A stretch of 64,000 bases of DNA from Alphaproteobacteria bacterium (lineage in GTDB: Bacteria > Pseudomonadota > Alphaproteobacteria > MPNO01). Below, piece by piece: positions 9,932 through 46,285 of the stretch. The position numbers and the translations under genes were made by a program. The stretch's first letter is position 1. Each line of letters starts with the position of its first letter. Location: contig CBDFLJ010000002.1 of NCBI GenBank assembly GCA_965248835.1, forward strand, positions 832,001-896,000, written 5' to 3'. The notes under the pieces were generated by a model. It did not search any database and was not told the origin of the DNA. It saw nothing but the letters and a program-made list of their open reading frames with translations.

Positions 9932-11613
9932 CCGGATATCCCAGATAGGAGCCGATTTCGCTGCCTACCGAAGCATGATAGTCCAGCCATTGCAGCAGGT
10001 TAGCCATGGAGGAGCGGGGATTTGGCGGTGAACGCGACGGGTGAAGCAGAATCCGTCCCGCTGCGGCTCCAGTTTGACCGCTCGGTGAAGCTGGCGTTCT
10101 GCGGCTCTTCTATCAGTTCCGACGGTGGTCTGCTGCTTCACCGCGAACTCGATGATGCCCTTGGCCTCACCGGCATGGCGGCCGATCTCCTCGCCGATCC
10201 GCGCACCGGGAAGAACGGCCGTCACCATCTAGCGGCACTCCTGCGGCAATCGATCTTCTCTCGCCTGGCGGGATATGAAGACGTCAACGACGCGGATCGT
10301 CTTTGCCGCGATCCGGTGATGCGTCAGCTCGTTGGCGGACGGGCGGTGAAGCACGGTGCGGCCTCGGCGAGCGCCATGGGCCGGTTTGAGACGGAGATAT
10401 TGACCCAGCCTGATAACCTTACTGCTCTCGCCGATCTGCCCGGCCGCTGGATTGATGCGATCCATGACAGGCGACCACCGAAGAGCATCACGCTCGACAT
10501 GGACAGTTCGGAAAGCCCGGTGCACGGTAGTCAGGAGGGCTCCGCCTGGAACGGTCACTTCCAGTCGAAGTGCCTGCATCCGCTGTTCGTGTTCAACCAG
10601 TTCGGTGATCTGGAGCGGTGCTCCTTGCGTCCCGGCAACGTCCACAGCGCCGCCGGCTGGGAAGATGTGCTGCGGCCGGTTCTGGCGCGCTACTCCGCGT
10701 CTGCCCGGCAATCGATCACGCGGCGGCGGTTCCGGGCTGATGCTGCCTTTGCCATCCCGGCGTTGTTCGACCTGCTGGAAGCCGAGGGCTGGGACTACGC
10801 CATCCGAATCAAGGGCAATGCCAAGCTCCACGAGCGCATCGATTGGCTGACGAAGCGCCGGCCTGGCCGGCCGCCGAACCATGTCGTGCGCCTCTACACC
10901 AGCTTCCATTACCGGGCGAAGAGTTGGTCGAAGCCGCGCCGGGTGGTGGCCAAGGTGGAGTTCCATCCAGGCGAGCTGTTTCCGACCGTCGGCTTCATCG
11001 TCACCAACCGAGGCCTGCCCAACGAGCGGGTGCTGGCCTTCTACAACGACCGCGGCACCGCCGAGCAGCACATCAAGGAGGGCAAGTATGCGCTGAAGTG
11101 GACGCGTCTCTCCTGTATGCGCTTCGCGGCAAACGCCGTGCGGCTCCAATTGCATGCGCTCGCCTACAACCTCGCCAACTTCCCGCGGACAGCGGCGACG
11201 TCTGAACTGATCGAGCGCTGGTCCCTCACATCCTTGCGCGAACGGCTGATCAAGACTGGCACGCGGCTCGTGCGCCACGCCCGCTATGCGGTGTTCCAGA
11301 TGGCGGAGGCCGCGCTGCCCCGCTCTGTCTTCGCAGGCATACTCGGCCTCATCAACGGACTGCGGGGGCCGCCAGCCGTGACGGTGCCAGCATGATCAAC
11401 GGTCATCTTCGAGCCGCGATGCGCACGGCCGGAGGCGCGAGAGGTGCGACCTGCGGGAGCCAAAATGGCTTTCCTCGCTGCGCCGAACCGCTACCGGCAC
11501 GCTTTGCAGGCTCGACGTCGGCCGAACGAGGCGAAGCACAGGCATTCGTTGGCTTGATCAGCGACCCCACAAATGGCATCGTCAGTGGGAGTGTTCCATA
11601 TGGGGAATGCCGG
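9932..11613 (+). mobile_element. IS1380-family insertion sequence
   Basis: Imperfect terminal IRs ccggatatcccagata / catatggggaatgccgg around the transposase; boundaries approximate. Confidence 0.75.
10022..11395 (+). CDS. IS1380-family DDE transposase
   Basis: ISSDGGLL, GYEDVND, LDMDSS, LRPGNVHSA, RADAAF, YNDRGTAEQHIKEGK motifs. Confidence 0.93.
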   Translation: MAVNATGEAESVPLRLQFDRSVKLAFCGSSISSDGGLLLHRELDDALGLTGMAADLLADPRTGKNGRHHLAALLRQSIFSRLAGYEDVNDADRLCRDPVMRQLVGGRAVKHGAASASAMGRFETEILTQPDNLTALADLPGRWIDAIHDRRPPKSITLDMDSSESPVHGSQEGSAWNGHFQSKCLHPLFVFNQFGDLERCSLRPGNVHSAAGWEDVLRPVLARYSASARQSITRRRFRADAAFAIPALFDLLEAEGWDYAIRIKGNAKLHERIDWLTKRRPGRPPNHVVRLYTSFHYRAKSWSKPRRVVAKVEFHPGELFPTVGFIVTNRGLPNERVLAFYNDRGTAEQHIKEGKYALKWTRLSCMRFAANAVRLQLHALAYNLANFPRTAATSELIERWSLTSLRERLIKTGTRLVRHARYAVFQMAEAALPRSVFAGILGLINGLRGPPAVTVPA

Positions 11614-17134: not shown

Positions 17135-18238
17135 ATGGCCAGACGCGAAAAACCGCCGTTCCGCGCCGATCACGTCGGCAGCCTGCTGCGCCCTGCCGCG
17201 CTCAAGGCGGCGCGCGAAAAACATGCCGGGGGCGAGCTCGACGCGGCCGGGCTCGAGGCCGTCGAGGACCGCGAGATCGCGCGCGTCATAAGGAAGCAGG
17301 AGGAAATCGGCATCCAGGCCGTGACCGACGGCGAGTTCCGGCGCTCGTGGTGGCACCTCGACTTCCTGTGGGGGCTCGACGGCATCGAGCGGCACGTCAT
17401 GGAAGCCGGCGTCGCCTTCGCCGGAACCACCACGCGCGCCGAGGGGGTGCGGGTCGCGGCGAAAATCGGTTTCTCCGGCCATCCGATGCTGGAGCATTTC
17501 GCGTTCGTCGATGCACGGTCCGACCGGCTGGCGAAAATGACCATCCCGGCGCCGTCGGCGGTCTACGGCCGGCCCGTGAAGGTGCCGATCGATGCGGCCG
17601 CATATAAGGAGCTCGACGCGTTTTTCGACGACCTCGGCCAGGCCTACCGCAAGGCCGTGCGCGCCTTCGCCGACGCCGGCTGCCGCTACCTGCAGCTCGA
17701 CGAGGTGTTCATCGCCATGTTGTGCGACGAGAACTACCGCCGCCGGATGATCGAACGCGGCGACGATCCGGAGAGGCTCGCCGATCTCTACGCCGATCTC
17801 ATCAACACGGCCGTATCGGACATCCCCGCCGACATGACCGTCACCATGCATCTGTGCCGCGGCAACTACAAATCGACCTTCATGGGCACCGGCGGGTACG
17901 AAGCGGTGCAGGAGGTGCTGTTCGGCAAGACCGCCGTCCACGGATACTTCATGGAGTACGACAGCGAACGCGCCGGCGGCTTCGAGCCGCTGCGCCTGCT
18001 GCCGAAGGACAAGACCGTCGTGCTCGGCCTGGTGACCACCAAGCGCGGCGCGCTCGAAACCAGGGACGAGATCATGCGGCGCATCGACGAGGCGGCGAAG
18101 TTCGCCGACATCGACCAGCTCTGCCTGTCCGGCCAGTGCGGCTTCGCCTCGAGCGAGGAAGGCAACACGTTGAGCGAGGACGAGCAGTGGGCCAAGCTCG
18201 CCCGCATCGTCGAAGTCGCCGACGAGGTCTGGTCCTGA
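17135..18238 (+). CDS. Cobalamin-independent methionine synthase II family (MetE C-terminal-like) protein
   Basis: PPFRADHVGSLLRP, TDGEFRRSWW, Zn ligands HLCRGN and QCGF. Confidence 0.92.
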   Translation: MARREKPPFRADHVGSLLRPAALKAAREKHAGGELDAAGLEAVEDREIARVIRKQEEIGIQAVTDGEFRRSWWHLDFLWGLDGIERHVMEAGVAFAGTTTRAEGVRVAAKIGFSGHPMLEHFAFVDARSDRLAKMTIPAPSAVYGRPVKVPIDAAAYKELDAFFDDLGQAYRKAVRAFADAGCRYLQLDEVFIAMLCDENYRRRMIERGDDPERLADLYADLINTAVSDIPADMTVTMHLCRGNYKSTFMGTGGYEAVQEVLFGKTAVHGYFMEYDSERAGGFEPLRLLPKDKTVVLGLVTTKRGALETRDEIMRRIDEAAKFADIDQLCLSGQCGFASSEEGNTLSEDEQWAKLARIVEVADEVWS

Positions 18239-18318
18239 CAGGTTTTCCCCGGCATTTCCCATGTGACGCGAGGACGGTTGCCGGTCTTGCGCACCGGGGC
18301 ACCCACCTGCCGCGCCCG
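18042..18318 (+). repeat. Direct repeat copy 1: 3' end of MetE-like gene plus downstream sequence (~277 bp)
   Basis: Aligns by eye with 20132-20408. Confidence 0.9.
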
Positions 18319-18991
18319 ATCCAGGGGCCGCCTTCAGCGACAAGCCAAAAGTGAGAAATTTTGGGTCGCCAAAAATGGGAGATTTACTAGTCCCACGGAC
18401 ACTTTCCAACTCTCAGTTTCTTATTACAGTTGTGGAGTCTTGCGGCATCGAGCCAGCTTACGGTCGCTGTTGACTGGTGCTGACCATACGGCCCATTTAT
18501 GCCCCTACAAGTTGCGGAGATCGCGCACTCAGCGTTGCTAGTGGCGGTGGCGGTTTCATCCTTGCACGAATCGTCCGCGGAGCTGGCCTCGAACTGCTCA
18601 AGGCACGAATCGTCGTCGACGACGTCCGCCTCGTTGCAGAGATCGCCCAGATCTTTGCAGCAGTAAACCCCGTTGACCTGGGTGGCGGACTGTTCTGCCG
18701 TGTTGCCGGTGGTCAAATACACTATCGTATCCGCCAGTATCTCTTTGTCGATCTTTGCGACGACCTCCCCGTGGTCCGGGCACAGGTTTTGGATTTCGAC
18801 AGTTTGTCCGCTTGCAACCGTGCTTATCTTGACGCGTAGGCAATCCGCGCTCTGGTGATTGATTCTCTGGCCATGCCGCGCAGCCGGCATGGGCCTGACC
18901 GGCAAGCAGCGCCGCCAATGCGAGCGCGAACACGGCCGAGAGCGCGTGGGCTTTATTCCAGGTCATTTTCGGACCTTTCCGTTGCGCGCCG
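18306..18991. repeat. Tandem gene cassette copy 1 (~686 bp)
   Basis: Homologous to 19116-19801 including near-identical non-coding flanks. Confidence 0.92.
18387..18966 (-). pseudogene. Secreted Cys-rich protein, paralog 1 (net +1 frameshift just after the signal peptide)
   Basis: Same signal peptide as 19198-19776; 580 bp vs 579 bp; indel at ~18870-18882; mature part is an open frame. Confidence 0.8.
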
Positions 18992-19115
18992 ATGCGCCGT
19001 TCGTGGGGCCTCATTGCCCTGATGGTGCGTATCGCGCTGCGCTCGAATGTCGGCTTTACGCCGCCTGATTGCGCCCTTCTCCCCGGTCGGCCTGACGTGA
19101 TCGGCACATAACGTC

Positions 19116-19801
19116 CCTGCCGCGACCGATCCAGGGGGCCGCCTTCAGCGACAAGCCAAAAGTGAGAAATTTTGGGTCGCCAAAAATGGGAGATTTACTA
19201 GTCCCACGGACACTTTCCAACTCTCAGTTTCTTATTACAGTTGTGGAGTCTTGCGGCATCGAGCCAGCTTACGGTCGCTGTTGACTGGTCCTGACTATAC
19301 GACCCATGCATGTCCCTACAAGTTGCGGAGATCGCGCACTCACCGTTGCTAGTGGCGGTGGTGATTTCATCCTTGCACGAATCGGCCGCGGTGCTGCCCT
19401 CGAACTGGTCAAGGCACGAATCGTCGTGGACGATGTCCGACACGTTGCAGAGATCGCCCAGAAGTGTGCAGCAGTAAACCCCGTTGATCTGGGTGGCGGA
19501 GCGTTCTACCGTGCTGCCGTTGGTCAAATACACTGCCAGATTCACCTGTATCTTTCTGTCGATCCTTGCGACGACCCACCCGAGGTCCGGGCACAGGTTT
19601 TGGACTTCGACAGTTTGTCCGCTTGCAGCCGTGCTTATCTGGACGCGTAGGCAATCCGCGCTCTGGTGATTGATTTTCTGGCTGCCGCTGCAGCCGGCAT
19701 GGGCCTGACCGGCAAGCAGCGCCGCCAATGCGAGCGCGAACACGGCCGAGAGCGCGTGGGCTTTATTCCAGGTCATTTTCGGACCTTTCCGTTGCGCGCC
19801 G
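19116..19801. repeat. Tandem gene cassette copy 2
   Basis: Homologous to 18306-18991. Confidence 0.92.
19198..19776 (-). CDS. Secreted 12-Cys protein, paralog 2; C-terminal half weakly cyanovirin-N (CVNH)-like
   Basis: 192 aa; Sec signal peptide ending AHA; 12 Cys; F..S..SC.D....ISATCR..GSY....LHNCN..L pattern. Confidence 0.8.
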   Translation of the reverse strand: MTWNKAHALSAVFALALAALLAGQAHAGCSGSQKINHQSADCLRVQISTAASGQTVEVQNLCPDLGWVVARIDRKIQVNLAVYLTNGSTVERSATQINGVYCCTLLGDLCNVSDIVHDDSCLDQFEGSTAADSCKDEITTATSNGECAISATCRDMHGSYSQDQSTATVSWLDAARLHNCNKKLRVGKCPWD

Positions 19802-20131
19802 GGGCATCATTGTGCCACCGGCAGGACAGCGTACTCGTCACCTGGCGCCAGAATTATCCGGCAGCGTTGCTGCGCCGTCAATGTCAATTCGTGCCTTGAA
19901 CGGTTCAAGGGCAGCGACGCGGGTGGTTCATGCCGCGATCCAGCCGCCGGCGTCGATGCCATCTATCGGTGCAAGGTCACCGCTTCGTGTGAAAACGGGA
20001 ATGGCGGCCGTCGAAAGGCGAGCGCGACCGTGGCTGGCGCGACGTCAACGATCTCCGCAACTGTGCGGGCCATCTGGAAGTCGGAGCGTGCGACCCTCAG
20101 CCGGATCCAAAGTAGCATTGTCGATAACGAG

Positions 20132-20408
20132 AGCGCGGCGCGCTCGAAACCAGGGACGAGATCATGCGGCGCGTCGATGAGGCGGCGAAGTTCGCCGGCA
20201 TCGACCAGCTCTGCCTGTCCGGCCAGTGCGGCTTCGCCTCGAGCGAGAAAGGCAACACCTCGAGCGAGGACGAGCAGTGGGCCAAGCTCGCCCGCATCGT
20301 CGAAGTGGCCGACGAGGTCTGGTCCTAACACGTTTTCCTCGGCGTTTCCCAGGTGACACGAGGACGGTTGCCCGTCTCCCGCACCGGGGCACCGACCTGC
20401 CGCGCCCG
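20132..20408 (+). repeat. Direct repeat copy 2: orphan 3' fragment of the MetE-like gene
   Basis: Encodes ALETRDEIMRRVDEAAKF..QCGFASSE..EVWS*, then the same downstream sequence as 18239-18318. Confidence 0.9.
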
Positions 20409-20646
20409 GCGTCCCGAACTGGCCTTTCGCGGCGGCAAACCCGACCGCCGCCCCCGTGCCTTCCGAAGCGATGGCCGGGGCCTTTTCCGTTTCAGGACAG
20501 CCACCTGCTGGCGGAGGGCAAGGATTTCTGTATGAAGCGCTGCGCGGCCAAGGACGGTTTCGCGGAAGACGGAGATGAGGACATTGATGATTTTGTGCTT
20601 GCCGGAAAAGGTATCCGGTGGTGATGCGAAATTCCAAGGTTTCTAA

Positions 20647-21588
20647 GAGCCCTTCCGGAAAGTTCTTGAATCGGAAGAATCGTTTGTGATTCTGTGCTGG
20701 GCATCCGGTTTACAGGAGGAAGCCCGATGTGGACTGCGGAACACCGCCGCGCGGCGGAGCGTCGCGGACTTCGCTATCCGAGTGATCTGACCGACGCCGA
20801 GTGGGCGCTGATCGCGCCAATGATCCCGCCTGCCAAGCGCGGCGGGCGCAAGCGCTCAGTCGACGTGCGCGAGGTTCTGAACGGCATCTTCACCGTGCTG
20901 TCCACGGGCTGCCAGTGGAATGCACTGCCCAAGGATCTGCCGCCGAAGTCGACGGTGTACGACTATTTCGATCTATGGGAGTGGGATGGCACGCTGGAGC
21001 GGATCCATCATGAACTCTACGTCGCGGTGCGCGATGAGGAAGGACGCGAAGCCAGCCCGTCGGCCGCGGTCATCGACAGCCAGAGCGCCAAGGCGGCGCA
21101 AAAAGGGGGGCGTCGATCGACGATCAAGGCTTCGATGCGGGCAAGAAGGTCACCGGTCGCAAGCGGCACATCATGGTCGACACGCTCGGCCTGATGCTGG
21201 GCATCGTGGTGCATTCCGGCGACGTTCAGGATCGCGACGGTGCCCACGAGCTCTTGCGCCGCACCCGGCGACGGTTCCCATTCATCGAGGTGATCTACGC
21301 CGACGGCGGCTATCAGGGACCGAAGATGGCCGCGACTGTCGCCAAGACCGGGGGGTGGCGGCTCGAGATCGTCAAGCGCAACGACGTGCCCCGCTTCGAG
21401 GTGCTGCCAAAGCGTTGGATTGTCGAACGCACCTTCGCCTGGATCAGCCGCAACAGGCGCCTCGCTCGCGACTTCGAACGTCACGTTCGATCCGTCGTCG
21501 CCTTCATCCGACTCGCCATGATCCGCATCATGCTGCGCAGACTCGCCGCAACCCACTCACCATAGATTCAAACTTTCCGGATCGGCTC
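20647..21588 (+). mobile_element. IS5-family (IS1031-type) insertion sequence, copy 1
   Basis: IRs gagcccttccggaaagtt / aactttccggatcggctc; 942 bp; near-identical to 42325-43268. Confidence 0.92.
20727..21565 (+). CDS. IS5 transposase split into two ORFs at an A5G6 slippery run (~21100-21110)
   Basis: YPSDLTDAEW, TGCQW, IDSQS, then KRHIMVDTLG, ADGGY, RWIVERTFAW. Confidence 0.88.
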
Positions 21589-42073: not shown

Positions 42074-44208
42074 ATGAAATCGCTACTCAAGACATATGCG
42101 ATACTGCCGGCCGCCACCGTTCTGGGGCTGGCCATCGGGCTCGCAACGGCTTCGGCGGAAACATACAGGATCGGTCTTGCCGTTCCCGTAACCGGCACCG
42201 GGGCCGATGCCGGCAAACGCGAAGCGATCGGCGCCCATGCCGCCGTCACTGCGATCAACAAAGCCGGAGGAATCGGCGGAAGCATGATCGAATTGTTCTT
42301 CGCGGACACCGGCAGCAATCCTCAGAGCCGATCCGGAAAGTTTGAATCTATGGTGAGTGTGTTGCGGCGAGTCTGCGCAGCATGATGCGGATCATGGCGA
42401 GTCGGATGAAGGCGACGACGGATCGAACGTGACGTTCGAAGTCGCGAGCGAGGCGCCTGTTGCGGCTGATCCAGGCGAAGGTGCGTTCGACAATCCAACG
42501 CTTTGGCAGCACCTCGAAGCGGGGCACGTCGTTGCGCTTGACGATCTCGAGCCGCCACCCCCCGGTCTTGGCGACAGTCGCGGCCATCTTCGGTCCCTGA
42601 TAGCCGCCGTCGGCGTAGATCACCTCGATGAATGGGAACCGTCGCCGGGTGCGGCGCAAGAGCTCGTGGGCACCGTCGCGATCCTGAACGTCGCCGGAAT
42701 GCACCACGATGCCCAGCATCAGGCCGAGCGTGTCGACCATGATGTGCCGCTTGCGACCGGTGACCTTCTTGCCCGCATCGAAGCCTTGATCGTCGATCGA
42801 CGCCCCCCTTTTTGCGCCGCCTTGGCGCTCTGGCTGTCGATGACCGCGGCCGACGGGCTGGCTTCGCGTCCTTCCTCATCGCGCACCGCGACGTAGAGTT
42901 CATGATGGATCCGCTCCAGCGTGCCATCCCACTCCCATAGATCGAAATAGTCGTACACCGTCGACTTCGGCGGCAGATCCTTGGGCAGTGCATTCCACTG
43001 GCAGCCCGTGGACAGCACGGTGAAGATGCCGTTCAGAACCTCGCGCACGTCGACTGAGCGCTTGCGCCCGCCGCGCTTGGCAGAGGCGGGATCATTGGCG
43101 CGATCAGCGCCCACTCGGCGTCGGTCAGATCACTCGGATAGCGAAGTCCGCGACGCTCCGCCGCGCGGCGGTGTTCCGCAGTCCACATCGGGCTTCCTCC
43201 TGTAAACCGGATGCCCAGCACAGAATCACAAACGATTCTTCCGATTCAAGAACTTTCCGGAAGGGCTCTCAGGACGCGGTAAACGCGGTACGCAAACTTG
43301 TAGGCGATGACAACGTGCTGGCCATCGTGGGACCGCATTATTCCGGCGTGGCCGAGGCGACCTTTCCGCTGGGAAATCGACTCGGAATCGTTCAGATCGC
43401 CGTGGCGTCGTCGAAGCCGGGTGTCGCGGCGGCGAACCGGCCCTACGCTTTCCGTAACACGCTTACGGAAGACAAGGTGGCGGCGGCCGTGGTGGCCAAG
43501 TTCAAAGCTCGCTACAACCCGAAGAACGTCGCAATAATCACCGATATCAAGGATGCGGTATCGCGCGCGATCGGCACCGCCGTGTTGCCTGCGGCACTCA
43601 AGGCGGAGGGCATCAAGATCCTGAACCAGGGGAATCCGGTCACGTTCCAAACCAGCGACGCTCAGTTCACGGCCCAGATCACCTCGCTGAAAGCCATGAA
43701 TCCGGATGCCGTCGGCCTCGGCGCGCTTGGTCCGGATGCGCTGAACATAATCACGGAAGCACGCCGGCAGGGCATGACACAGCCGTTCTTCGGGACCGGA
43801 CCGCTCATGGAAGGCAATATTCCCGAAAAGGGCGGTGCCACCGTTGCCGGAACCGTCGCCGGCACGATCTGGGACTATTCGCTTGCCAATGAAGGCAGCA
43901 GGCAATTCATCGCAGACTATGAAGCGGTTTCCGAGACCATCTATCCCGGCGAATTTACCAAGCGTCCCGACTACTATGCCGTGAACGCCTATGACGCCGT
44001 TTACATGATAAAGGCTGCCATCGAGTCCGGTGCCATTTCTGCCGAAGGCTCCGATCTGAAAGGTGCCAGAAACAAGATCAGAGACTACATGGCGGCGCTC
44101 AAGGACTTCAACGGCGTTGCCAGCAGCGGCTTCAACGATGTCGGCGATGGTGTGAAAAATGTCGTCGTCTTCGAAATCAAGGATGGCCACTGGGCGCCGA
44201 TGCAATAA
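42074..44208 (+). pseudogene. Branched-chain amino acid ABC substrate-binding protein (LivK-like) interrupted by IS5
   Basis: Reads ..DTGSNPQ | IS | DAVNAVRKL.., in frame once the IS and one TCA are removed. Confidence 0.9.
42325..43268 (-). mobile_element. IS5-family insertion sequence, copy 2 (2-bp insertion in ORF1)
   Basis: Same IRs as copy 1; TCA target duplication at 42322-42324 / 43269-43271; 944 bp. Confidence 0.93.
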
Positions 44209-44893: not shown

Positions 44894-46285
44894 GAGCTAT
44901 GGCCAGAAGTTGGTGACGGGGTGAAGGGTTAAGGCGGCGTATCGTGGGGGTGATCGAGCCTCCACCTCTCCAACGAAGGAGTGATACGCCGTGAGCGACA
45001 ATAACGTTTTGAAGCTTTCCCAGCCATCGACGTTTTCCGATCCGTTGACCGAGGTGCTGCGCAGCGGCGCCCGGTCCCTGCTGGCGCGGGCGGTCGAGGC
45101 GGAGGTTGCCGCGTTCCTTGATGGCCACTCCGAGGCGCGCACCGAAGAAGGCCGCCGACGGCTGGTGCGCCACGGCCACCTGCCCGAACGCGAGATCATG
45201 ACCGGCATCGGCCCGGTTGCGGTTCGCGCGCCACGCGTTCGCGACCGCACGGGCCTGGGCGCCGACCGCATCCGGTTCAGCTCCGCGCTCCTGCCGCCTT
45301 ATGCGCGGCGCTCGAAGAGCCTCGAAGTCCTGATCCCCGTCCTCTACCTCAAGGGCATCTCCACGGGCGACTTCGCCGAGGCGCTGGCGGCCTTGCTCGG
45401 GCCGGACGCCGGCGGCTTGTCGGCCTCGACCGTGGCGCGGCTCACCGAGGTTTGGGCGGACGAGCACGCGCACTGGCTGAAGCGGGATCTGTCGGCCAGG
45501 CACTATGTCTACTTCTGGGCCGACGGCATCCATGTGCAGGCCCGGCTCGAGGACGATGCGCAATGCCTGCTGGTCATCATCGGCGCGACGCCGGAGGGTA
45601 AGAAGGAACTCGTAGGCCTCGTCGACGGGGTGCGCGAGAGCGCCCAATCGTGGCGCGAGCTGCTACTTGACCTCAAACGGCGCGGGCTCGCGGTCGCGCC
45701 CGAACTCGCCATCGCCGACGGCGCGCTCGGCTTCTGGAAGGCGATCGAGGAAGTGTGGCCCCGGACCCGCAGCCAGCGCTGTTGGGTGCACAAGACCGCC
45801 AACATGCTCAACAAGCTGCCCAAGAGCCAGCACTCGAAGGCAAAGCGTGCTCTCCAGGAGATCTGGATGGCCGAGACCAGGAACGACGCAGACAGCGCCT
45901 TCGACGCCTTCATCGAGACCTACGCCGTCAAGTACGACAAGGCGGCCGCATGCCTGGTCAAGGATCGCGAGACGATGCTGGCGTTCTACGACTTTCCCGC
46001 CGAGCATTGGAAGCATCTGCGCACCACCAACCCCATCGAAAGCACATTCGCCACCGTGCGACACCGTACCGTGCGATCCAAGGGATGCCTCTCCAACAAG
46101 ACGGCGCTCGCCATGGTCTTCAAACTCGCCCAGGCGGCACAGAACAGTTGGCGCCGCCTCGACGGACACAACCAGTTGCCCAAGCTGATCGTCGGCGTAA
46201 AGTTCATCGACGGAATCGAAGCCGTCAGGCAACAACCTCAAGCCGCCGCCTGACCCAAGCCGTCACCAAGATTCGGCTATAGCTC
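44894..46285 (+). mobile_element. IS256-family insertion sequence
   Basis: IRs gagctatggccagaagttggtgacgg / ccgtcaccaagattcggctatagctc; 9-bp TSD atatcggaa. Confidence 0.95.
44991..46253 (+). CDS. IS256-family transposase
   Basis: YFWADG, IADGALGFW, QRCWVHK, RTTNPIES. Confidence 0.95.
   Translation: MSDNNVLKLSQPSTFSDPLTEVLRSGARSLLARAVEAEVAAFLDGHSEARTEEGRRRLVRHGHLPEREIMTGIGPVAVRAPRVRDRTGLGADRIRFSSALLPPYARRSKSLEVLIPVLYLKGISTGDFAEALAALLGPDAGGLSASTVARLTEVWADEHAHWLKRDLSARHYVYFWADGIHVQARLEDDAQCLLVIIGATPEGKKELVGLVDGVRESAQSWRELLLDLKRRGLAVAPELAIADGALGFWKAIEEVWPRTRSQRCWVHKTANMLNKLPKSQHSKAKRALQEIWMAETRNDADSAFDAFIETYAVKYDKAAACLVKDRETMLAFYDFPAEHWKHLRTTNPIESTFATVRHRTVRSKGCLSNKTALAMVFKLAQAAQNSWRRLDGHNQLPKLIVGVKFIDGIEAVRQQPQAAA

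Follow-up and report, generated by a model that had tools for sequence, protein, structure and literature searches.

Layout of the tandem copies

The stretch of DNA analyzed here (64,000 nucleotides of an alphaproteobacterial genome assembly, contig CBDFLJ010000002.1, positions 832,001 to 896,000; the whole stretch is called the window below) carries on its minus strand two co-oriented copies, A and B, of a gene for a small cysteine-rich protein, and throughout the central part of the gene the two copies differ by amino acid replacements only. The spacing of the copies is 811/810 bp. The features of the pair, numbered from the first letter of the window, are as follows.

19198..19776, minus strand: copy B, an intact gene of 579 nt for a 192-aa protein (P0001) with 12 Cys
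18387..18966, minus strand: copy A, 580 nt, the gene of copy B plus one extra base, frameshifted as assembled
18864..18879, minus strand: indel patch, 16 nt in copy A against 15 nt in copy B (19675-19689, codons 30-34)
19290..19641, minus strand: variable core of copy B, codons 46-163, holding all 42 base differences from copy A
18479..18830, minus strand: variable core of copy A, corresponding to 19290-19641
19690..19801, minus strand: identical 5' block, 112 nt, 100% identical to 18880-18991
19100..19197, minus strand: 3' flank of copy B, repeated behind copy A at about 18290-18386
19853..19881, minus strand: sigma-70-like promoter of copy B (TTGACG, 17 nt, GATAAT; 10 of 12 matches)

The identical 5' block consists of 25 nt of 5' untranslated region, with the ribosome-binding region, and of the first 29 codons, from the signal peptide to Cys29; over ~95 nt the 3' flanks are separated by a single indel and one or two substitutions. 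The flank of copy B includes a short hairpin-forming stretch, and a terminator scan of 18200-20200 found none. The promoter of copy B aligns with the conserved TTGACA box and ~100-nt leader of the family, and copy A has no counterpart of either, as only 25-37 nt before the ATG are common to both copies. A search of 17500-21000 against Rfam (E <= 1) found nothing, and RNAalifold shows no conserved structure in the 5' leader (consensus energy -2.39 kcal/mol, with one of nine pairs covarying).

The only indel between the two coding sequences is confined to the patch from Cys29 to I35, where the frame breaks: with 16 nt in place of 15 nt the ATG frame of copy A is out of frame, departing from the family frame after Cys29. 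The family frame of copy A is open from a TTG at 18905 to the stop (18387..18905, 172 aa, no signal peptide), and this long frame contains no stop codon. As assembled, copy A therefore does not constitute an intact secreted-protein gene. The preliminary description of this DNA had spoken of tandem secreted proteins that differ only by amino-acid-changing substitutions and share their signal peptide, all 12 cysteines and their last 29 codons. Two co-oriented copies do lie where it had placed them, and the signal-peptide codons, the last 29 codons and, nearly, the 3' flanks are identical as described; copy A, however, is frameshifted as assembled and promoterless, its 12 cysteines are recovered only when it is read across the break, and the extra base contradicts the word "only".

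Substitution pattern

From I35 to the stop the copies align without gaps over 477 nt each, with 42 base differences falling in 37 of 158 sense codons, and none of the 37 changed codons is synonymous. This formal alignment upholds an earlier count by hand (about 38 changed codons and no synonymous-only difference), and both of the peptide pairs quoted with that count are present (KIDKEILADTI/RIDRKIQVNLA and GINGPYGQH/DMHGSYSQD). The differences are split 18/21/3 over the three codon positions (chi-square p 0.0013) and comprise 22 transitions and 20 transversions. The ratio of nonsynonymous to synonymous divergence (dN/dS), which had been left to be computed, is 25.4 by the Nei-Gojobori method (dN 0.122, dS 0.0048; 0.5 synonymous differences over 104.7 sites and 41.5 nonsynonymous differences over 369.3 sites), and the excess of replacement over silent change between the copies is significant in Fisher's test (p 2.3e-5). 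When 42 unselected mutations were simulated 100,000 times at the observed ratio of transitions to transversions (22/20), a mean of 8.4-8.9 synonymous codon differences was obtained, and the probability of obtaining none was 3e-5 to 6e-5. Both lineages have changed: polarized with two outgroup genes, 15 differences are derived in A and 17 in B, with 10 ambiguous.

In contrast with the core, the first 87 coding nucleotides (29 codons) show no difference between the copies, and the last 29 codons are likewise identical. The latter rank among the most variable positions in the wider family, so that their identity here reflects recency or homogenization rather than constraint.

Since copy A is frameshifted and the family has several pseudogenes, its differences might simply have accumulated by neutral decay under relaxed constraint. 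Such decay predicts about 8-9 silent codon differences where none is seen, and on the simulation it is rejected (P 3-6e-5); at least 17 changes moreover fall on the lineage of the intact copy B, A-type residues are kept in an intact relative (P0005, below), and the long frame of copy A has escaped stop codons. Neutral decay is thus an exceedingly unlikely account, and the replacement excess lies far beyond chance as well as beyond relaxed constraint. The extreme diversifying selection proposed in the preliminary description agrees with this excess and with the invariant cysteine scaffold described below. An overlapping or antisense open reading frame (ORF) was also considered as the cause of the missing silent changes and was rejected by reasoning: codon positions 1 and 2 are hit about equally (18 and 21), and no single other frame would make the changes silent.

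Targeted hypermutation, whether by a diversity-generating retroelement (DGR) or by an unknown mutator acting on the first two positions of codons, would be a different route to such a pattern, and the 18/21/3 split without silent change does resemble the output of a DGR template. A DGR had been dismissed at the outset on the grounds that the changes are not adenine-specific. The base spectrum agrees (A>N 16, N>A 10, other 16), but two variable regions of one template can differ by any base, so that the adenine argument alone is insufficient; the conclusion stands with the further finding that DGR parts are missing. A blastn search of the whole 4.89-Mb genome with copy B finds no template-like third copy, the next match being a complete paralogue (79.6% over 465 nt), and the only match to RVT_1 lies 1.37 Mb away (contig C2, 2218448-2219026), where it has a YADD motif and a maturase-like tail, which we take to be of group II intron type, and no flanking repeat pair. 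Many adenines in the variable span are identical in both copies, the variation is spread over 352 nt and two domains, and the same variants are inherited in other contigs. With no template repeat, no local reverse transcriptase and no adenine specificity a DGR is excluded, and targeted hypermutation of any kind is very unlikely.

Alleles, sample contigs and the assembly

Further alleles, whose collection had been suggested, show that A-type and B-type sequences also occur outside the pair. Among 11 relatives returned by a protein search, P0002 equals copy B over residues 1-122 and P0005 equals copy A over residues 46-126, both being intact and each on another contig, and the close protein alleles are mosaics of one another. 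Across eight close alleles five residues occur at site 67 (W, E, D, Y, Q) and four at each of sites 105, 157 and 163. A scan of JGI metagenomes found no relative, and a scan of genome contigs found three family loci, all in one metagenome-assembled genome (MAG).

The metagenome contigs compared with the locus are Logan contigs from four runs of one sample, none of them listed as an RNA run, in which the locus lies in many short pieces (60-109 per run, of which 24-42 per run are less than 90% alike). Among the variant positions listed inside the two genes, 2 of 27 are silent on their own (18654 and 19672), a count beside which 101 further variant rows stand; among the variants listed, the sample contigs thus carry the same replacement bias as the A/B pair. 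Contigs over 18729-18908 have one base fewer than copy A at 18875 together with six other differences, and these differences mark them as another allele. The spacer between the copies is covered in all four runs (bins 18972-19133), and one contig record (28) spans 19006-19105 with a single difference. In runs X1 and X3 there are contigs in which 20131 is joined to 18987/18989, and these imply strains whose array units differ in number or order.

These data bear on the suspicion that the pair is a product of assembly, either alleles of one single-copy gene that come from two strains and were joined in tandem, or an indel introduced in error into the consensus; on that view the finding would be one of allelic diversity and not of paralogue divergence. 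The sample does hold many alleles, and the Logan contigs are broken up across the locus; the genome assembly, of metagenome type, has a contamination of 9.5%; and among the contigs listed none is exact to copy A over 18729-18908. On the other side, the unique spacer is covered by contigs in every run, the window's contig is 2.6 Mb long, the close members P0003 and P0007 share one 36-kb contig in another assembly, and the dN/dS result would stand even for alleles. An assembly origin of the pair is accordingly judged unlikely.

Extent and annotation of the protein family

About ten further members lie on contig C2 of the window's genome (2 contigs, 4.89 Mb, 67% GC); four of them are intact (p820, p2384, p2126 and p2127) and three are broken (C2:2125161-2125733, 2128914-2129294 and 2133801-2134196). 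Two short tandem genes (C2:495643-496008 and 496558-496917) consist of the C-terminal half domain only, behind a different signal peptide, and in some database relatives (P0109, P0117, P0124) this half is repeated 4-6 times; the C-terminal half thus acts as a module in its own right. Searched with a profile, 1.84 billion cluster representatives yielded 397 clusters at E <= 1e-3, 194 of them at E <= 1e-10, mostly of 190-215 aa with some of 560-855 aa. The family genes have a GC content of 53-63% and a third-position GC content (GC3) of 0.61-0.78, against 0.8-0.9 for host genes. In 68 members the cysteine scaffold comprises seven invariant and five nearly invariant cysteines.

Only chance-level matches were found in Pfam, NCBIfam, PHROGs and PADLOC, the sole match in a Pfam scan of P0001 at E <= 1 being Sperm_Ag_HE2, by chance. 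A profile search of the PDB gave one match with an E value of 0.73, the ESM Atlas gave no usable match, none of 15 cluster members listed bears a name, and full-text literature searches (result listings, supplements apart) found no paper on the family. To judge from these comparisons the family is undescribed, and unannotated in every library searched. Its distribution is narrow: matches occur in 10 of 61 near relatives, counting the window's own genome (8 of 19 at the level of its taxonomic family and 0 of 2 at that of its genus), and in none of 300 other genomes from an even sample of the class.

Across the family the mature region has dN/dS ratios of 0.23-1.83, elevated values for a folded protein, and its codons have diverged more at silent sites than those of the signal peptide. 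In a second shallow pair, the C-terminal half of ps2125 (the first of the broken genes above) and its counterpart L032 in another genome, 1.0 synonymous and 16.0 nonsynonymous differences are counted; in a third, p2384 and its MAG counterpart L031, the variable sites coincide with A/B sites at 8 of 17 positions (p 0.02). The TTGACA box and ~100-nt leader are kept at the window (19777-19881) and upstream of p2384, p2126, p2127 and L031-L033, despite coding regions that are saturated at silent sites.

Predicted export and structure

The N-terminus of copy B, MTWNKAHALSAVFALALAALLAGQAHA and then GC, reads by eye as a signal peptide ending ...AGQAHA before G-C, with an AXA site and no lipobox, and is thus of the type probably exported by Sec and cleaved by signal peptidase I. 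Within it A14-A27 are invariant in 12 members, and the residue preceding the cysteine varies among members (G, A, T, V or D), a variability at odds with a lipobox.

AlphaFold2, given an alignment of 68 sequences, predicts the fold with a local confidence (pLDDT) of 90.4 and a template-modeling score (pTM) of 0.76: an N-terminal beta-sandwich domain at about residues 30-107 is followed by a small alpha/beta domain at about residues 118-189. Twenty of the 37 variable sites fall outside regular secondary structure, as against 46 of the 118 positions of that span. Foldseek returned no PDB match for the predicted fold at E <= 0.001. With an exhaustive aligner the N-domain (30-107) matched tendamistat (Z 6.4) and Ig-like sandwiches (range Z 6.4-6.8), and the C-domain (127-188) matched the CVNH structures 1n02, 5c8o, 2jzj and 2l2f (Z 6.4, 6.1, 5.6 and 5.3) over 49-55 residues at 9-22% identity; all of these values lie below 8, which on the tool's own scale denotes a common arrangement. 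As modeled, the two-domain disulfide fold is apparently new. A homodimer prediction for the mature domain scored 0.04 against a mark of 0.42 and is evidence neither way.

In a sister genus the family domain forms the N-terminus of proteins of about 806-820 aa, in all seven examined of which it is followed by a Calx-beta domain. The AlphaFold2 model of one of these long relatives (pLDDT 59) ends in ~380 residues of long antiparallel strands (428-805, ending ...SRF), and this predicted barrel matches in Foldseek the autotransporter BrkA (3qq2_A, E 4.7e-6, TMt 0.60) and EspP (E 3.6e-4), and also TonB-dependent receptors and CdiB. TIGR01414 scores 14.8 bits (E 0.011) on the long relative, below its cut-off of 16, and PF03797 matches none of the seven. 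The models suggest that the long relatives place the family domain outside the cell. The genes of the window are not type Va autotransporters in the sense of a single polypeptide, as copy B has 192 aa and no barrel is encoded nearby.

Mobility and recombination

An 887-bp module, made up of the TTGACA promoter, a leader of ~100 nt, the gene's coding region and ~190 nt on its 3' side, is 95.6% identical between the window's genome (C2:2383931-2384817; L038:5931-6817) and an alphaproteobacterial MAG (L031:2874-3760), whereas the syntenic def and COQ9 products of the two genomes are 52% and 46% identical, with saturated silent divergence. This disparity implies recent horizontal transfer of the module, the ends of which are sharp and, by eye, carry no obvious terminal repeats. 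Recombination is evident within the genome as well: the broken ps2125 (C2:2125161-2125733) is about 99% identical over about 330 nt to its intact neighbor p2126 (2126625-2127221) and is L032-like at both ends, a mosaic that clearly records segmental conversion between tandem copies.

Surroundings of the pair

The pair lies among further repeats and mobile elements, of which those adjoining it are listed here.

19877..20035, plus strand: decayed fragment of the C-terminal half of a family gene, upstream of copy B on the opposite strand (tblastn, 33% identity over 55 aa, E 0.002; E 3.7e-4 in a second search)
18042..18318, plus strand: 277-nt direct repeat with its second copy at 20132-20408 (94%), the pair being bracketed between
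20694..21565, plus strand: IS4/IS5-family transposase in two frames (PF13340, PF01609), directly after the second copy of the 277-nt repeat

The 277-nt repeat contains the last 197 nt of a MetE-like gene (PF01717) and 80 nt downstream, and is likely the trace of a larger, 2090-bp duplication that was shortened by an insertion sequence (IS). The window is rich in insertion sequences (10022-11392, 20694-21565, 42351-42740 and 44991-46250), which include DDE_Tnp_1_4, two IS4/IS5 copies with an identical 130-aa ORF and a Mutator-family transposase, and which have catabolic genes as neighbors (amidase, hydantoinase, ring hydroxylases).

With these features in hand the pair might be taken for a cassette system, in which copy B would be the expression site, copy A a silent donor and the identical 5' and 3' blocks the homology arms, as at pilE/pilS and vlsE. 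Copy A is indeed promoterless and out of frame and yet has kept its ends (112 nt and about 190 nt, identical or near-identical); segmental conversion between tandem paralogues does occur in the family (ps2125, p2126); a further decayed family fragment lies upstream; and the sample contigs that join 20131 to 18987/18989 represent a different arrangement of the array. The donor would, however, be a single full-length one whose start codon, signal peptide and ribosome-binding region are still in place, which sets it apart from known silent cassettes; with P0005 there is an intact A-type gene elsewhere, so that copy A resembles a recently broken gene; no B/A chimeras are shown at the locus; and the recombination genes nearby are IS transposases only, with no recombinase or recombination-promoting element. 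A cassette system is for these reasons considered rather improbable.

No conserved partner gene stands next to the family members, the neighbors differing at the window, at three further loci of its genome and at three loci of the MAG, in a scan limited to ORFs of at least 100 aa with high GC3, which a small partner could have escaped; the word "system" in the preliminary description was to this extent too strong. The conserved small immunity partner that adjoins a polymorphic toxin was likewise absent from these loci within the limits of the same scan. At one locus of the window's genome (C2:2119510-2134196, L036) five family copies, two intact and three broken, lie directly downstream of exporter genes (an outer-membrane efflux protein, a PAS-HlyD adaptor and a MacB-type ABC ATPase and permease; OEP-HlyD-MacB), with a 1267-aa FG-GAP/ASPIC protein among the five copies. 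This exporter is a possible secretion route, a lead from a single instance.

Interpretation

The interpretation that we regard as probable, at somewhat better than even confidence, is that a small gene module capable of horizontal movement was recently duplicated in tandem, and that its product is under recurrent diversifying selection on an exposed binding surface. The product would be a two-domain protein, exported by Sec and probably with six disulfides, from a family that appears undescribed. After the copies separated, both lineages would have replaced amino acids at about 37 positions while silent sites and flanks barely changed, under recurrent positive selection acting on the binding surface, and recombination among alleles and paralogues would reshuffle the variants. 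Copy B is the putative expressed gene; copy A, being downstream, promoterless and frameshifted, would be a recently disabled duplicate. The protein most likely works extracellularly, in recognition, adhesion or antagonism, and is possibly lectin-like. To our knowledge, a replacement-to-silent ratio of ~25 sustained over 40 changes is seldom seen in any organism. Such patterns in bacteria usually mark molecules of conflict or recognition, such as phage receptors, adhesins, bacteriocins and kin-recognition proteins.

Several observations weigh against recurrent selection on a young duplicate. Copy A, frameshifted and promoterless, cannot be under current selection; its frame break is neither confirmed nor refuted by the sample contigs, none of those listed matching copy A exactly across the break (18729-18908), and the metagenome-type assembly carries the contamination given above. 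The A/B pair is extreme even within its own family, as the shallow pair p2384/L031 has an ordinary ratio of 0.87 (6.5 synonymous and 20.5 nonsynonymous differences). Recurrence at the same sites is mixed: the variable sites of ps2125/L032 coincide with A/B sites at 1 of 13 positions (p 0.17 for the union with p2384/L031), and the A/B sites are slightly more variable family-wide (2.75 versus 2.39 bits, p 0.066). The weak fold matches to the predicted domains (Z below 8) are leads and not assignments.

A bolder reading sees here a bacterial counterpart of the accelerated evolution of venoms: a self-contained ~0.9-kb mobile module in which conserved "bookends" (promoter, leader, signal peptide and 3' end) enclose a diversified, disulfide-locked core that changes at a rate hardly explained by point mutation and ordinary selection. 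If this were true, the locus would reveal either an undescribed mechanism of targeted diversification or cassette exchange, in which copy A would be the donor, or else a molecule of strain recognition under extreme selection for rare types; we consider it rather unlikely. For the "directed variation" offered in the preliminary description no positive evidence was found, although a dedicated diversification mechanism behind the pattern, if there were one, would be new. On the preferred reading of a selected young duplicate, the A/B pattern already flags an unannotated, multi-copy family that moves between distantly related alphaproteobacteria and that, to judge from the models, is displayed in relatives on autotransporter-like proteins. 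A small soluble domain, a natural series of alleles and mapped variable sites together offer an entry point to what these bacteria recognize or fight.

Comparison with known systems

Like the variable proteins of DGRs (of the Mtd and TvpA type), the pair shows replacement-only variation at first and second codon positions on what may be a ligand-binding scaffold; unlike them it has no template repeat, nearby reverse transcriptase or adenine specificity, and its predicted fold has no PDB match in Foldseek, C-type lectin folds being absent from the matches listed. With pilE/pilS of Neisseria and vlsE of Borrelia, as these are generally known, it shares a putatively expressed copy beside a non-expressible one, conserved ends and variable middles, and segmental conversion of the kind found in those systems is seen in the window's family; it differs in having one would-be donor, copy A, which keeps its start codon and signal peptide.

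The relatives, as modeled, resemble type Va autotransporters in that the cysteine-rich domain heads a Calx-beta domain, a helix and an outer-membrane barrel similar to the beta-domains of BrkA and EspP, but their barrel misses PF03797 and falls under the TIGR01414 cut-off, and the proteins of the window are stand-alone, of 190 aa, without a barrel. The C-domain aligns to four CVNH lectin structures (Z 5.3-6.4) and the N-domain to the tendamistat type of beta-sandwich inhibitors (Z 6.4), all at Z values below 8; unlike CVNH lectins, P0001 has no match to their Pfam family (presumably PF08881) at E <= 1, and the C-domain covers about half a CVNH domain. In Myxococcus TraA, as generally known, a polymorphic extracellular domain also has cysteine-rich parts, but the window's family has neither a sequence or fold relation to it nor a sorting tag. 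For polymorphic kin-recognition receptors of the TraA type strain-specific alleles are expected, with selection favoring rare types.

A likeness in overall design exists to conotoxins, as commonly described, and to MgCRP-I of Mytilus (PMC4558851): a conserved signal or leader, a hypervariable mature part and an invariant cysteine framework, in a multi-copy family with replacement changes in excess. Those peptides are eukaryotic and a few tens of residues long, whereas the protein described here is bacterial, has about 165 residues in two domains, and is encoded by a mobile module of ~0.9 kb.

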